This document shows, piece after piece, positions 1 to 7,374 of a DNA stretch of 64,000 nt (within the stretch, counting starts at the first letter, position 1; each line of letters begins with the position of its first letter). The stretch lies in contig CAWFGE010000023.1 in NCBI GenBank assembly GCA_963815195.1, positions 1-64,000 of the forward strand, in the 5' to 3' direction. The notes below the pieces were generated by a model. That model saw only the letters and a list, made by a program, of their open reading frames with translations, had not been told where the DNA came from and did not search any database. The translations under genes were made by a program, and so were the position numbers. This stretch comes from an uncultured Planctomycetaceae bacterium. GTDB lineage: Bacteria > Planctomycetota > Planctomycetia > Planctomycetales > Planctomycetaceae.

Positions 1-2067
1 TTGTTGTGCCCCCTTGGGATAGTGATTTGCTCGGTTTCGTGATTTTTGAGTTTTAGCATGGCGTCTTTAACCTCCTCAGTTTTGGGAAACAGATAGCACC
101 GATAAGTTGGATCGACAGAAACCACGATCTGTCTTTGCTCAATTTTATGATACATCCAGGATATGTTGCGCCCGATTTCCTGAGCCATTTCCGCGGCGGT
201 CCAGGCATGGGGCAGGTTCTTTGCACGCGGGCTTTTGATCCGGTAGCGATGTCTTAACTTGTTCACGATTTGCGAGGTGAATTGTTCGCCACGACAGGGA
301 TGATGGCCTTCGCGATTGAGATCCGCCGCGATCATTTCACTCGACCGGCCTTCGCTGGTTTCTTGCCGGATGCGTTCCACGATGTGCTCTTCCAAGTCCG
401 TGTGTTTCATTGAAAAACGCCGTAGGAGAGCCGACGTTTCGGTCACCGAACCGCCGGCCCAGACCATGCGAATTTGCACCAGCCCATCCGATTGCCGGTG
501 AAGATTGACTCCCGTAATCATCGTCCGCAACAACGACTTCTTCGCCTCCCAAGACAACTCGGGCCAGAGTTCGGGAAGCTGCCGCCCGACATCCGCGAAG
601 GCGTCTCGCAAGGACTTTGGTACGCGGATCGGTTGGGGAATTTCTCGGCGGGCATCCGCCAGGTTTTCTTCGGCTTGCTTTTGCGCCAACAAAGCCGATT
701 CCCATTTCTCTTCCAGACTGGCCGCAATCAAACGGTTCTTGGGATCGACACAGTCGTATTGTTGCTCGGCCCGATGGGCGGCGTATTGCAAGCACCGACG
801 TCTTGCTCCAAATGCCGAACCACGTCCGCATGCGTGCGAGCCCTTTCGGCGGAGAGTTTCTCCAACACATCGATCTCGGCAGGCCGCAGCACTTCAAAGA
901 AAGCTTCCGTCACCGCCTCGTCGATCTTGTTGCCGCCCAAGTACTGGCAGGATCGTTGGGCGTAATGCCGATAGCCAGAATTGCATGAGTATTGAAAGCG
1001 GTTCTCCTTGTAATTCACTCCCATCGTTCGACCGCATTTTCCGCAGCGCAATAAGCCCGTTAACAACGCGCAGCCGTTGCGGATGGCTTGCTTGGCGGCG
1101 AGTCGTTGTTGGATGCGGAGGTTGTTTTGAGCGATTCGGCGTTGGTTGTCTTCGTACTGCTCCCAACTGATATAGGCCGGGTAGATGCCGGGAATTAAGA
1201 CCGACCATTCCGCTTGGGGCCGGCGCGTGCGACCCGTGGCAGGACGACCGGGAATTCGTAGCGTGGGATCGACTTGCCGACGCCCATGAGCAAACGCGCC
1301 TGCATAAGCCGGGTTATGCAGGATCGAGCCCAACGAAGCGGCCGTGGCTTCTCTCCAAAACACTTCGCCCGCATAAAGGCCCGAAACTTGGCGCCGGGGA
1401 ATCTTCAAATTTTTCTTGGCCAGGAACGTCAAGACTTTTTGAATCGTGCCCAACTCCACGAACTTGTCGAACACCAAATGCAATCGCTTTTGAATGCTCA
1501 GATCGGGATCGAGCATCACCGTCTTGTCCAGATTGCGGACCAAGCCCGTCGGCAAGTTTTGCACCAACTCGCCCCGCGCGGCCTTCGACAATCGACCCGC
1601 GTCCAATCGCAATCGGAGGCTATGGAGTCTGCCGAAGACATCGTGCCCTTCAAGCCTAAGAGGAGCCTGTCGTTGAAATCCCGTGGATGATACAACCCAT
1701 CCACATCACCGATGAGTGTGTCAAAGATCGCACACAATTCCAACAGTCGATGCCAATCCACATCGTTGCGGGAAAGCCGTGAAACTTCATAGCCCAGAAT
1801 GATGCCAACCTTACCCAAGCCGACGTCGGCGACCATCTGTTGAAAGGCCCCGCGTCCCGCCGTTTGCGTGGCCGATTGCCCTTGATCATCCTCCAGGATG
1901 CTGACTTGTTCCGGCTTCCACCCCAACTCCAACAACCGGGTTTTCAAGGCTCGCTGGTTGTGGGCACTCTCTTGGTTTTTCTCGACCTGCTTCGTCGTGC
2001 TCTGACGAAGATATACGATCCCGCGGCGATTCAAATGGCTGGTGCTGACTTTCATCGATCCGTTCAT
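1..2067 (-). CDS. Large serine recombinase (resolvase + recombinase + zinc ribbon + coiled coil + C-terminal HTH-like extension); frameshifts near 1615 and 790; runs off the left edge
   Basis: YLRQST nucleophile motif, EVSRLSR, DRLLLGLKGTMS, ILHNPAYAG, CGKCG...C...C zinc ribbon; corrected frame gives QYDCVDPKNRLIAASLE and stays open to base 1. Confidence 0.9.
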
Positions 2068-2170
2068 GCTCCAGTTCCTCCGTTAGAATGACGACGATTT
2101 GCTGGATGATCCGCTGCTGCTCTGGAAGAGTCAGACGGTTCCACACCTGGTCCGTGGCAATGGGTGACAT
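1886..2170 (-). CDS. Small helical protein preceding and overlapping the recombinase start (possible accessory/directionality factor)
   Basis: MSPIATDQVWNRLTLPEQQRIIQQIVVILTEELEHE, with GGAAG upstream. The 3' part overlaps the recombinase and is uncertain. Confidence 0.5.
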   Translation of the reverse strand: MSPIATDQVWNRLTLPEQQRIIQQIVVILTEELEHERIDESQHQPFESPRDRISSSEHDEAGREKPRECPQPASLENPVVGVGVEAGTSQHPGG

Positions 2171-2462
2171 CGGCTTCCCTCCGAGAAAGAATATCCCGAA
2201 AGGTAGTCACCAAATCCTGGAGCGCGTCCAGGGTCAGACAGGAAGTTTTTTGGGGAGGAGCGGTGGAAAGGTTCGTGCTGCTGACGTCGATGTAGGTCAT
2301 CTCGTCAGGAAAAATCTCGACTTGATAATACTGACGATAACCTGGCAGGCGGGCTAAGCCGAACAAATCAAATGTTCGGCCATAAAGCGGATGGGCCGGA
2401 TCGGTGACGGTGATCTCACCGCGCGATAACTGAGTGACCAGAGGTGTCTTGTGATGGTCGGA
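2064..2462 (-). CDS. DUF5372/Y4bD-like small protein, with no start codon inside the element upstream of its conserved motif
   Basis: Frame open from the junction: SDHHKTPLVTQLSRGEITVTDPAHPLYGRTFDLFG...LTLDALQDLV. Resembles the VTHPFHPLxG proteins seen upstream of such recombinases. Confidence 0.6.
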   Translation of the reverse strand, partial: SDHHKTPLVTQLSRGEITVTDPAHPLYGRTFDLFGLARLPGYRQYYQVEIFPDEMTYIDVSSTNLSTAPPQKTSCLTLDALQDLVTTFRDILSRREADVTHCHGPGVEPSDSSRAAADHPANRRHSNGGTGA

Positions 2463-2463
2463 C

Positions 2464-2796
2464 CTTTCCAGTGCCGGGCGGACCGAGCAGTAAAATGTCG
2501 GCGGCTTCGCGAATAAACTTCCCCGTCGCCAGGTCCATGATTCGGCGTTTGGGCAGCGAGGGGTTGAAGGAAAAATCGAGTTGGTCGAGGGTTTTCATCT
2601 CGCGGAACTGGGCCAGCTTCAATCGCCGATCGATCGCCCGTTGGCGACGGATTGCCAACTCATCGCTTAACACCAGTTCCAAGAACTCGGCATGCGACAA
2701 GCCGTTGCCGATGGCTTCTTGCAGCCTGACTTCCAAGGATTCGATCAGGCCGCTCAAGCGGAGTTGCTTCAGCATCTGCATTAAATTTCCATTCAT
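2464..2796 (-). pseudogene. istB: IS21 helper ATPase IstB, 5' fragment truncated at Walker A
   Basis: LKQLRLSG...KTLDQLDFSFNP...ILLLGPPGTGK, then unrelated residues and a stop at 2416. Confidence 0.9.
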
Positions 2797-4377
2797 CGGT
2801 TTTGCTCCTTTCGAAGAGCGGCTTTGACAAACTCGGAATAACTCACCAGCGGCCGAATGACCGGGTGTTCGTCTAAAAACTCAAACTGGGCTTGCACGGG
2901 GGCGTTGCGGTCGATCAGCTTGCGAACGGTCCTCAGTCGGTAGGCTCCATACGAGTGGGCGGTGCGGCACGCGCGTTCGATGTCCTCGCGCGAATGCTTG
3001 TCGGCCAGTTGCTTGAGGCCCATCAACACCCGCACGCCCTCAATGCCGCGTGCTCCCAGCATGGCCGCGGACCAATCCCTGGTTTCCGGGCCGATTTCGC
3101 TGACTTTCGCCAGCCACCAGGTGGCTCCGCGTTCCACGCCGGAGATTTTCCTCGCGTGCAAATGGGTGTTCTGCGTGCTGAACTTTCCCGGTTCTTGACG
3201 GGCATGCAAGGCGATCTGTTCCAGCTTGGCATTGAAGATGCGCACCAGCCGCGCATCCCAGCGCACCCAGACTTTCCTTCCCAGAAATTCCGGCGGCACG
3301 GAGTAATACGCCTTGTCCACGGAAATGTGCCCATCGCGATGCACGCTCCGCAGGGCTTCATGGAAAAACGGAAATCGTTCCAACGGCAACGGCAACGGAA
3401 ACAGTGCTGACCGTTCCCGTTCGCGAAACGCCTTGCCCACTTGCTCTCTGGTCGTTCCATGAATCCGCGTATCGGCCACGGTGGATTCCCAGGCCCACAA
3501 GTGTTCGTTCTGTTCGCGCAGGCTTCGGAACGTCCGCCCTTTGAGTGCGTTTTCTTGGGCGTAGTCCACGCCGCGTTCGACCTTGCCTTTGTGTCGGGGC
3601 GTGCGAACCCGCGTGGGCAAAAACACCGTGCCGTAGTGCGCGGCGAACGATTGAATCTTGGGGTTCAGTTCCGGGTCGAACCAATCCGCCTTGCTCACGG
3701 CGGCGCGCAAGTTATCGATGATCAGAGTCTTGGGCACACCTCCAAAATGCCAGAACGCACTCTCCAGACACCGAATGAAGTTGTCGGTGGTCTGGCGATC
3801 GATCGCTTCCGTGTAGCCTTTACGGCTGTGGCTCAGCACGACCCGCAACACGTGTGGCCGGCGACGACGGCCGTTCTCATCCACGACGGCCGCGGCTTGG
3901 CCAAAGTCCACTTGAGCTTCCGCGCCGGGCTGCGCATTCCAATCGACGAAACGGCAACTCCTTCGAAGACCGCAACTGCCGCACGAAGCGTTTCACGCTG
4001 TCGTAGCCATGGGGAAAATCATGGTCATTCGACAGGTCCTGGAAAATTCGCTGCGCGGAAAGTCCCTGGCCGAGCTTTTCTAAAATGACATCCCGCCAAG
4101 GCTCGCAGCGGCTCCGCGAAAGTTCCGACTCGTCCTTCTCAGAATCGTCTTCAAGGGCCTCACGAAGGTCCTCCGACCCGGCGGGCAGTTGGCCCTCGGA
4201 CCCGGTGGGCACTTTGGCCTCGGACCCGGTGGGCACTTTGGCCGGTTTTGAAGCGAGATGGGCGGCCACCGTTGAACGGTGAATGCCCAATTCGCGGGCA
4301 ATCTTGCGCAAAGACCAGCCTTGAGTGCGCAAAGTGTGAATGGCTTGAACCGTGTCCATCGAGAGCTGATTCGACAT
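2793..4377 (-). CDS. istA: IS21 transposase IstA (frameshift near 3925)
   Basis: N-terminal HTH SLRKIARELGIHRSTV; QVDFG, IIDNLRA and KGKVERG form the DDE triad; YSVP motif. Confidence 0.93.
4170..4241. repeat. In-frame 24-bp tandem repeat in istA (two identical copies, one degenerate)
   Basis: cctcggacccggtgggcactttgg at 4194-4217 and 4218-4241; degenerate copy at 4170-4193; encodes AKVPTGSE. Confidence 0.9.
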
Positions 4378-4440
4378 CGCTTGTTTTCCTCTGAGAAAAC
4401 TCAAAGGAGAACAAAATGTCGAATCCCTTTCCTCTCAAAA

Positions 4441-4997: not shown

Positions 4998-5090
4998 ATG
5001 GAATTCATCGTGATTCTCGCCATACTGGCCGGCCTTGGTCTCAAATACAAAGTCAAGGAAACCGAGTGGCGACTGCGCAATAAGAAATGA
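4998..5090 (+). CDS. 30-aa single-TM basic peptide (not in the ORF track)
   Basis: AAAGGA RBS, then MEFIVILAILAGLGLKYKVKETEWRLRNKK*. Confidence 0.6.
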   Translation: MEFIVILAILAGLGLKYKVKETEWRLRNKK

Positions 5091-5131
5091 ACGTCCCTGG
5101 GCCAGGGAGGGCCTGCTTTGTCAGGTGCTAT

Positions 5132-5331
5132 ATGTCAAAGCCATTCCGTGATGAATTCGCGTGGGCAACCGCCTGCCGCTTGGTTGATATTGTCGCGCCA
5201 TGTCTTCGCGAGGAAGAGCAGGCCGATGCCCGCGAAGAATTCTACGATCTCATCATAGTGGCGCTTAGGGCCTACGACGGCATGTCGAGCCGTAAGGCGG
5301 TTCGGCGGCGGTTCGCCCCAGCAATAACTGA
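5132..5331 (+). CDS. Small hypothetical island protein (probably a separate gene, fused to the next ORF by an indel)
   Basis: MSKPFRDEFAWATACRLVDIVAPCLREEEQADAREEFYD...; one extra C in the gcccc run would end it as PSNN* near 5331. Confidence 0.5.
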
Positions 5332-5428
5332 GAAATGCCACAAGCAGTCAGAGATAGGCTGCATAAACGGCCCGCATGGATATGGAGTGAAAACCAGTCG
5401 CGGGCATTTCGGTTTCGGAGACATGATA

Positions 5429-5704
5429 ATGACACTCGACGAACGGCTGGAGAAAATCGAGTCCATGCTCGCGGTCTTGATCGAACGCCAGATGGTGAGG
5501 GAATTCTATGAGGTGGAGGAGTTTGCCCGGATCGTGGGCAAAGCTCCCTTTACCGTCCGCGAATGGGCACGGCTCGGCCGCATCAATGCGCAGAAACGGG
5601 GATCAGGTCGCGGGCTGCATGCCGCCTGGGTGTTCTCACATGCGGAGTTGCTCCGGTATCAGCGGGACGGGCTGCTTCCCATCCCGCGATTGCAAGGCCA
5701 GTAG
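5429..5704 (+). CDS. Excisionase-like HTH (HTH_17/MerR-type) protein
   Basis: GGAG RBS; YEVEEFARIVGKAPFTVREWARLGRINAQK; convergent with the integrase. Confidence 0.75.
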   Translation: MTLDERLEKIESMLAVLIERQMVREFYEVEEFARIVGKAPFTVREWARLGRINAQKRGSGRGLHAAWVFSHAELLRYQRDGLLPIPRLQGQ

Positions 5705-5708
5705 GAAT

Positions 5709-7142
5709 TCACAAGCGTGAGGACTGCCGGTCGCCTTCAACTCCCCGTGTGTTCTCAGTCTTCCGGCTCCGTTCTGCTGTCTGCGGCTGCGATTCGTGTT
5801 GTGTATGCGAAGCGCCGAAAATGGCGGAAAGGGCTTCCCGTTGCGTGCTGGGATACATGTGGGAGTAGCGGCGGCTCATCTCCTGGCTCATGTGTCCGGC
5901 CCACGTTTCCACCAGCCGTTGGTCGATCCCCCGGTTGGCACAGGCGGATACGAACGAGTGCCGCAGGACATGCCAACCCTTCAACACGTTCCATTGGCTG
6001 TTACTCAGGGTGCGTTTGAAATGATCATGGGCCTCGTCCTTGGTGAGAGGCGTTAGCGTCCCGGTCTTGCGTTGGTGAACGCCGGCCTGTCGCTGTGTTG
6101 CTTTGGTGGATCGCTTCTTTTGACCCAGGTGGCCGGTGGTGGAACTCCGCTTCCGACTGCGGTTCACGATGGTTTCATGGCAGAATAGCCAGGAGCCGCC
6201 GGGATGATGGGACAACCATTCCTGCATGACCTCGACGAGAAATTCGGACATCGGCACGCGGCGGGTTGTCTCACGTCCCTTGACTCGCTTTCGTTCATGA
6301 ATCGTCAGGATTTGGCCCTCAAGATCCACATCCGCCACTTTCAGCCGGAGCAGTTCCGAGCGCCGTGCCCCGGTGTGAGCCGCCAGGCAAAACATGGAAT
6401 AGATGAATCCGTGAGCGGCATGAGCTTCGACATGGCGGAGCAGTTCCGAGATTTCGCCGATCTGGAGATACAGCGAATCGTACAACTCCGCTTGCTGGGC
6501 TTCGCTGAGTCCCCCGGCGTTGATCTGCCGTTCGATTTCCGCGAGGGTCTGGAACGGTGGCTTTTCGGTCGTTTTCGGGTAACGCAGGCCCTCATTGGGA
6601 AATCGGCCAGAAACAAGGTCCATTCTCGCGGCCCAATTCCAGGCCGTCCGCAGTGAGACGATCTCTTTTTTGATGGTCGTGGCCGAGACTTTTCGGGCCT
6701 TCTTGCCATGAGGTTTCATTCGCCCGTCAACGTATCCTTGAAGATCCGCCAACGTCAGATCGGCAATGGGAAAGGAGTCGCCAAAATGCCTTGCGAAATG
6801 GCGAAAGTGAATTTGGAGGGTGGCCAGCGTGCTTGCTTCCAGGGAGTTCTCATGGGTTGCCAGATACTGCTGCTGAAGGGCCTGAAGCGTCAGTTTGGCG
6901 GGAGCGGGAAGGGGGTCTTCGACGGGCGGCTTCTGGCCATCAAATTGAACATACTCCACGATGTCCATGCCTGCCGGCAGGACGGCCAGGTTTTGCCTCA
7001 GCCGCATCAGCAGATAATCGACCTGGGCGCATTTTGTGGCCGCTTCTCCGCTGGACACTTTGCCAATGGTAAAACTCTGCTGTTTACCCTGGTATCGGAA
7101 GATCACCCGGTAGGTTTCATTTCGGTATTGCAAGGCGGCCAT
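5709..7142 (-). CDS. Tyrosine recombinase/integrase
   Basis: TGARRSE, HVLRHS, AGH, RRYSH catalytic residues; N-terminal arm-binding-like region; adjacent to a tRNA. Confidence 0.95.
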   Translation of the reverse strand: MAALQYRNETYRVIFRYQGKQQSFTIGKVSSGEAATKCAQVDYLLMRLRQNLAVLPAGMDIVEYVQFDGQKPPVEDPLPAPAKLTLQALQQQYLATHENSLEASTLATLQIHFRHFARHFGDSFPIADLTLADLQGYVDGRMKPHGKKARKVSATTIKKEIVSLRTAWNWAARMDLVSGRFPNEGLRYPKTTEKPPFQTLAEIERQINAGGLSEAQQAELYDSLYLQIGEISELLRHVEAHAAHGFIYSMFCLAAHTGARRSELLRLKVADVDLEGQILTIHERKRVKGRETTRRVPMSEFLVEVMQEWLSHHPGGSWLFCHETIVNRSRKRSSTTGHLGQKKRSTKATQRQAGVHQRKTGTLTPLTKDEAHDHFKRTLSNSQWNVLKGWHVLRHSFVSACANRGIDQRLVETWAGHMSQEMSRRYSHMYPSTQREALSAIFGASHTQHESQPQTAERSRKTENTRGVEGDRQSSRL

Positions 7143-7253: not shown

Positions 7254-7289
7254 CGAAAAGGCCATGTTTTTCAGGGCTTTTTGCCTGAG

Positions 7290-7374
7290 TGCCCAAGAGA
7301 GGACTCGAACCTCCACGTCCGTTAAGGACACTAGGTCCTGAACCTAGCGCGTCTGCCAATTCCGCCACTTGGGC
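7290..7374 (-). tRNA. tRNA-Leu (anticodon CAG), CCA not encoded
   Basis: GCCCAAG/CTTGGGC acceptor stem, CTAGG-TTCAGGA-CCTAG anticodon arm, long variable arm, GGTTCGAGTCC T arm. Confidence 0.97.

Follow-up and report, generated by a model that had tools for sequence, protein, structure and literature searches.

A large serine recombinase element in a planctomycete IS21 istB gene and an accessory gene whose start lies at the opposite element end

The window analysed here is a stretch of 64,000 nt from an uncultured Planctomycetaceae bacterium (assembly GCA_963815195.1, contig CAWFGE010000023.1). Its base 1 is the first base of this contig, referred to as C23, in the 8.9-Mb assembly, and the assembly break falls inside a large serine recombinase (LSR) element. 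The element contains three genes that encode a DUF5372-like protein (orf1), a small protein (orf2) and an LSR of 691 aa (Table 1). Upstream lie istA and the 5′ half of istB of an IS21 insertion sequence, while the small ORF and the LSR gene lie downstream. As the original prediction had stated, the recombinase frame is still open at base 1, where it runs off the contig start; the right end that the window copy lacks is known from other copies in the genome.

Table 1. Features of the LSR element and of the interrupted IS21 (window coordinates).
Feature	Position	Strand	Remarks
LSR element body	1..2464	-	2,476 bp in full; last 10 nt and right-hand AA core just past base 1
AA crossover core, left junction (attL)	2465..2466	-	first two bases of the istB Walker A lysine codon
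orf1 body, DUF5372-like	2064..2465	-	133 codons, without a start of its own
orf2	1886..2170	-	94 aa
LSR gene	1..2067	-	stop 7 nt past base 1
orf1 start signal at the far end	1..15	-	AAGGGGG at 15-9, 7-nt spacer at 8-2, A of ATG at base 1
IS21 istB, 5′ half	2467..2796	-	interrupted at Walker A GK; the frame read on into the element stops at 2416
IS21 istA (host IS)	2793..4404	-	one extra base near 3929 compared with the copies on C18 and C12

The genome harbours eight full-length copies of the element, seven of them with both ends, and one partial copy; they differ from the copy on contig C15 by 3-12 mismatches. All copies are inserted at the AA of the istB Walker A lysine codon, in at least three istB types, and contigs C14, C19 and C21 start or finish with a matching istB 3′ half. 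At three positions (C12:1850-4315, C15:137094-139559 and C16:84397-86861) the left and right istB halves belong to different IS21 types, as would result if element copies had recombined with one another or if the 2.5-kb repeat had been misassembled. A second LSR element, only distantly related (L002 and L006; ~34% identity), resides in the istB 3′ half, ~190 nt downstream, at a proline codon after Walker B. It was located at C21:1-2900, at the ends of C14 and C19 and on C18 and C16, and one istB is hit twice; judged by eye, the split start described below fits this second element of the same istB family, too. In the window, the IS21 is neighboured by an HTH_17 protein (5087-5704), a tyrosine integrase (5709-7142) and a tRNA-Leu (7289-7374), which together suggest the edge of a genomic island.

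The crossover position was set by the flank divergence among the copies. It agrees with an uninterrupted related IS21 istB at C23:241687, and empty-site contigs in the public runs X1 and X3 depart from the reference exactly at the core. The core has the 2 bp of LSR elements, and taking the element out leaves no target duplication, the rebuilt targets being open through the motif. On the minus strand, the orf1 frame is open from 2594 to 2064, straight through the junction, with no ATG, GTG or TTG before the conserved HPLYG motif, and its first standard start, TTG 2366, lies downstream of this motif, both in agreement with the original prediction. Only four non-standard start candidates exist between 2594 and HPLYG, namely ATT 2576, CTG 2471, CTG 2441 and ATC 2414.

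It had been proposed from the window alone that the far end of the element supplies the missing start codon and RBS across attP. Joining the ends in silico bore this out, as an ATG came into frame with orf1 in all seven complete copies of this genome, yielding a protein of 137 aa. The ATG sits 13 nt ahead of the core's end, with AAGGGGG 7 nt upstream (SD duplex of −9.1 kcal/mol), and opens 5 nt ahead of the LSR stop. When the element is integrated, this ATG leads out of frame into the istB 3′ half, giving 31-56 residues. At the other end of orf1, its stop overlaps the LSR start (ATGA, 2067-2064). A CTG start, one of two weaker alternatives considered earlier, is not needed.

The frame match was then followed across homologous elements at ~290 loci with LSR relatives (roughly 31-69% identity, many phyla), for which three inputs were set independently. 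The orf1 frame was taken from iterative profiles, the start was the one with the most favourable SD energy no more than 40 nt from the right junction, and the junction itself was obtained blind to orf1, from a reconstruction of the interrupted target protein guided by intact homologues; loci were clustered at 85% LSR identity. A junction was obtained for 75 of 209 testable loci, including 57 DUF5372-type loci in 29 clusters. The best-SD far-end start was in frame and open at 56/57 of these loci and in all 29 clusters, which are not independent trials because of their shared ancestry, compared to 13/49 for the remaining starts in these windows. The histidine kinase flank of L080 makes its junction doubtful; once this cluster is dropped, 28/28 clusters are in frame. 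The clusters span deep branches of the LSR tree (a quick tree), and the spacing on both sides of the core varies.

The sole DUF5372-type locus out of frame, L005, was considered as a counter-example and rejected: the istB sequence beside it seems to carry a frameshift, and the start is in frame when exact copies are compared. L258 has a CTG at the usual ATG position and is not a counter-example because an in-frame SD and ATG lie 27 nt upstream. For 6 of 27 later testable loci a junction was obtained, with the start in frame at 3/3 DUF5372-type loci and at 1/3 of the short type, and a nested 2,415-bp element with an empty site at the DNA level was also in frame (SD −6.1). The multi-copy boundary method agreed for 6/8 DUF5372-type clusters and disagreed for L034 and L088. 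A class with shortened orf1, which forms one side of a well-supported branch of the LSR tree and keeps the C-terminal helix only, was in frame at 11/17 loci (8/12 clusters) in a wider window and at 8/17 loci in the narrow one. In a Wolbachia chromosome, two identical copies of a compact element (L070 and L072) were found with the far-end ATG present.

Of 649 interior ATGs, 16% had an SD of −3.5 kcal/mol or better, compared with 29/29 of the far-end starts, and a strong SD plus start occurred near the LSR stop in 88/126 clusters versus 82/504 interior windows. An internal start is not a consistent feature of the homologues. Some internal GTG, TTG or ATG is present in 16/29 clusters, in only 2/29 with an SD ≤ −3.5 kcal/mol, and 13/29 clusters, the window's own included, have no internal standard start. 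The second of the earlier alternatives, a +1 shift from istB, failed as a general source of orf1 because 25/29 tested clusters lie antisense to the target gene. In L257, an in-frame ATG straddles the integrated core and the gene is annotated from it, so that most of orf1 could be made when integrated, provided that the target supplies an SD. What the sequences themselves show is the split layout, an orf1 frame that matches over the 2-bp core, also in distant relatives, and the purifying selection described below. We are nearly certain that the split-gene layout is real and selected, and the orf1 protein is very probably made mainly from joined ends.

A direct Pfam search matched the orf1 protein of the window to no family. 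Reciprocal iterative profiles tie it to the annotated DUF5372 protein of pNGR234a, and PF17342 (DUF5372) was matched by 48/86 aligned relatives; the Atlas score for orf1 as DUF5372 was 0.94, but with a recognition value below threshold. Judged by profile and model features, orf1 belongs to the DUF5372 family, and its profile matches 4,940 clusters at 50% identity. The AlphaFold model (pLDDT 87.7) has four strands and a helix at 79-99, a predicted SH3-like barrel with a C-terminal helix. The best structural match by VIA was to SH3-like domains and weak (Z 6.3, rmsd 3.1 over 60 residues), Foldseek with the model returned nothing at E ≤ 0.001, a PDB sequence search returned nothing below E 0.14, and no phage match was found. 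Over 26 pairs, dN/dS was 0.21 in the orf1 body, 0.12 in the LSR and 0.32 in the 12 codons that precede the orf1 body; by this measure orf1 is under purifying selection, including the stretch upstream of the database-assigned start.

The first ~38 aa of orf2 correspond to a conserved W..L...Q helix that was found in 126/185 clusters; Atlas matches of orf2 reach just 0.78. A strong SD of its own makes orf2 expressible in the integrated form. The LSR has the Resolvase, Recombinase and zinc-ribbon domains in 25/25 scanned proteins, and Y19, R21 and S23 of the catalytic YxRxS motif are invariant in 77 sequences. Its 691-aa frame is whole in three integrated copies (C15, C18 and C12), and the window copy shows 1-nt losses near 1630 and 793. 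Because other copies have 1-nt indels at the same two spots and a public contig nearly spans the element without gaps, these losses are probably consensus errors. The C-terminus of the LSR extends ~150 aa past the usual LSR domains, with an excisionase-like HTH_17 in 8/25 close relatives. A promoter scan gave two sites; these lie on the opposite strand and do not stand out from chance.

Joined ends were also sought in existing sequence data. No end-to-end element junction was present in the 231 loci with downstream sequence; five downstream orf1 matches, considered as tandem or circle junctions, were rejected as they belonged to neighbouring second elements. Eight public runs contained no circle junction, an absence that proves nothing as the contigs are of low depth, and viral contigs contained five integrated relatives and no element-sized record. 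Among 269 database homologues, two proteins picked by eye, P0358 (from a 2,600-nt contig) and P0126, have a far-end-type N-terminus in the register of the joined products. P0391, a cluster-mate of P0126, has the same body preceded by a read-through leader of unrelated sequence, the two diverging where the junction is predicted. We regard P0358 and P0126 as leads only to possible circle junctions.

In our reading, circles would form and be translated, and the orf1 protein would serve as a directionality switch. The RBS, the ATG and the first codons of orf1 lie at the opposite end of the element, so that orf1 would be complete only after the recombinase has joined the ends on excision. The integrated element would express orf2 and the LSR from their own RBSs, and occasional excision would restore istB. 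On the circle, ribosomes ending the LSR would restart at the overlapping ATG and cross attP into orf1, whose stop would in turn abut the LSR start. The SH3-like orf1 protein, probably via its conserved C-terminal amphipathic helix, would turn the LSR from excision to attP × attB integration, with conserved catalytic motifs of other mobile-element genes as the sites of re-insertion, and orf2 would be a candidate excision helper.

The accessible part of PMC11795197 describes known RDFs as acting on the integrated form, where they promote excision and inhibit integration. Because the orf1 protein would exist only after excision, it cannot start its own first excision. For this reason, and because the elements are found integrated and in multiple copies, we favour a pro-integration helper over an RDF latch, a translational loop or another task on the circle. 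Pro-integration is our best guess for the direction that orf1 favours, and we give the helper function about an even chance of being right.

Alternatively, orf1 could be a classical excision-type RDF that is turned on by rare basal excision and then acts as a latch, blocking re-integration and excising sister copies in trans; the circle would be prolonged for spread, and the host IS genes would be restored in a burst. A small accessory gene beside the LSR is where an RDF is usually found, and RDFs do not share a fold according to the accessible part of PMC11795197; moreover, with nine copies in this genome, action in trans would be possible. We nevertheless consider this latch and its outcome unlikely. 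Classical RDFs are expressed from the integrated state to trigger excision, and the integrated copy offers orf1 no standard start ahead of its conserved core. The inability to trigger its own first excision counts against the latch, as do the integrated, multi-copy state of the elements without a joined junction in the loci searched, and the availability of orf2, expressible when integrated, as an alternative excision helper.

The joined ends could instead be mainly regulatory, closing a translational loop from the LSR stop to the orf1 start and from the orf1 stop to the LSR start that raises LSR output, with the protein being secondary. In line with this and with our main reading, the orf1 frame is open across orf2 to the LSR start in 42/52 clusters versus 25.7 expected, and the orf1 stop lies within −8 to +4 of the LSR start in 44/69 compact elements, with the exact ATGA overlap in 28/69. 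None of the 27 long elements shows this coupling, however, and the LSR start has its own strong SD (median −9.5), so that translational coupling with orf1 is not required. Because the orf1 protein is moreover under purifying selection and has a conserved fold, a mainly regulatory function appears improbable.

Still less probable, in our view, is another circle-specific task of orf1, such as the recognition of target DNA or protein or the protection and maintenance of the circle. The family has many different motif-encoding targets, and nucleic acid or peptides are frequent ligands of SH3/KOW-like barrels, but the fold matches are weak (Z ≤ 6.3), and an entire clade has lost the barrel yet continues to insert into mobile-element genes. 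That the frame match is incidental and orf1 is made from internal GTG or CTG or target-derived starts when integrated is hardly credible: 83/120 database homologues are annotated to start within 8 residues of the HP motif and L257 has its ATG at attL, but a match in every cluster against about one third by chance, the clusters without an internal standard start and the selection on the upstream codons speak against it.

The pro-integration reading can be set beside several known systems. A cassette of pNGR234a (NC_000914.2:33989-37258), with the gene order DUF5372, HTH, small ORF and recombinase, has an LSR and an orf1 homologous to those of the window element. It lies within an ISNCY transposase gene, and the window element shares both the insertion in another IS and the order with the DUF5372 gene first and the LSR last. 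The same far-end SD and ATG are in frame in this cassette, and the RefSeq DUF5372 start is internal. The cassette measures 3.3 kb and includes an extra HTH gene, whereas the window element is a compact 2.5-kb form at the istB Walker A motif that lacks the HTH gene and has only 397 nt between core and LSR start. We take the cassette to be NGRIS-4 with the genes y4bA-D, which was reportedly described in 1997 as targeting other ISs.

Genes split by attP are known from the SSV1-type archaeal integrases and the repressor of mycobacteriophage BPs, in which the coding content depends on the integration state. These involve tyrosine integrases, and either the integrase is split or the 3′ end of the repressor is trimmed; here, a serine-recombinase element has the translation start parted from an accessory gene and the LSR gene whole. 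Unlike in the SSV type, attP does not lie inside the recombinase, as the LSR stop is located just inside the right end and the full frame is intact in three copies. In Tn4451/Tn4453 with TnpX and in IS circle junctions, the joined ends build a promoter on the circular intermediate, whereas the junction described here builds a reading frame with SD and start codon.

With phage large serine integrases that have RDFs (Bxb1, phiC31, SPbeta), the window element shares the catalytic, recombinase and zinc-ribbon domains, a 2-bp core and a small accessory gene (accessible parts of PMC11795197 and PMC12286644). According to the same sources, phage RDFs are made from the integrated state to cause excision, whereas the accessory gene here is incomplete until excision. 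One LSR using several related target sites, as here, is also a feature of the multi-targeting LSRs of Durrant et al. (accessible part of PMC10083194), but the targets here are catalytic motifs of other mobile elements, and none of the 25 scanned LSRs has DUF4368. Because just 63% of the multi-targeting clade has DUF4368 (PMC10083194, same part), its absence does not exclude kinship with this clade. That part of the paper does not mention a split accessory gene for these LSRs. Our literature search returned no description of the split-start design; subscription journals and the supplements of Durrant et al., which lay outside the search, may list these LSRs. Searches for DUF5372, y4bD or PF17342 likewise returned no literature. 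The split-start design thus appears to be a new, unpublished variant of attP-split genes.

If the proposed mechanism holds, a DNA-state switch that acts on translation initiation would be self-contained in a 2.5-kb element, and the so far unannotated DUF5372 family would gain a testable role and a correct start. Known cofactors of serine recombinases only promote excision; orf1 would be a possible integration-promoting one, with a bearing on direction control in bidirectional serine-recombinase transposons and on LSR genome-engineering tools. In its widest form, the proposal is that attP serves as a translational on-switch in a very large, cross-phylum family of minimal LSR elements that parasitise catalytic motifs of other mobile elements, where the DUF5372 gene is put together by excision, which also makes the element a closed loop of coupled genes. 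Its product would be a new type of directionality factor, opposite to known RDFs in that it sends the circle back into a target, and DUF5372 database entries would be systematically truncated at the N-terminus. We put this combined picture forward tentatively, considering it somewhat more likely to fail in some part than to hold in full.

The targets of the family were surveyed in 37 flanks, which comprised seven IS21 istB, six istA, six group II intron reverse transcriptase and three IS701 genes, two each of IS3, IS4 and ISNCY, one each of IS5, IS481 and a histidine kinase, and six unassigned flanks. The cut sites lie in conserved motifs (for example Walker A, KGxVE, RWxIE and DxxxxFD). Genes of IS21, IS3, IS4, IS5, IS701, ISNCY and group II introns would be reversibly inactivated by these elements. 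The group II intron reverse transcriptase genes are hit antisense (L021, L030, L057, L123, L139 and L201), in 5/6 cases at DxxxxFD. Close relatives also hit the Walker A motifs of other ATPase genes (right end of L259; loose ends in runs X5 and X8), and the right flank of L259 resembles a non-IS AAA ATPase. At L301:2469-4876 (NZ_CP023072.1), a compact element lies antisense within the recombinase gene of a larger, pNGR234a-type relative; members of the family thus serve as targets, too.
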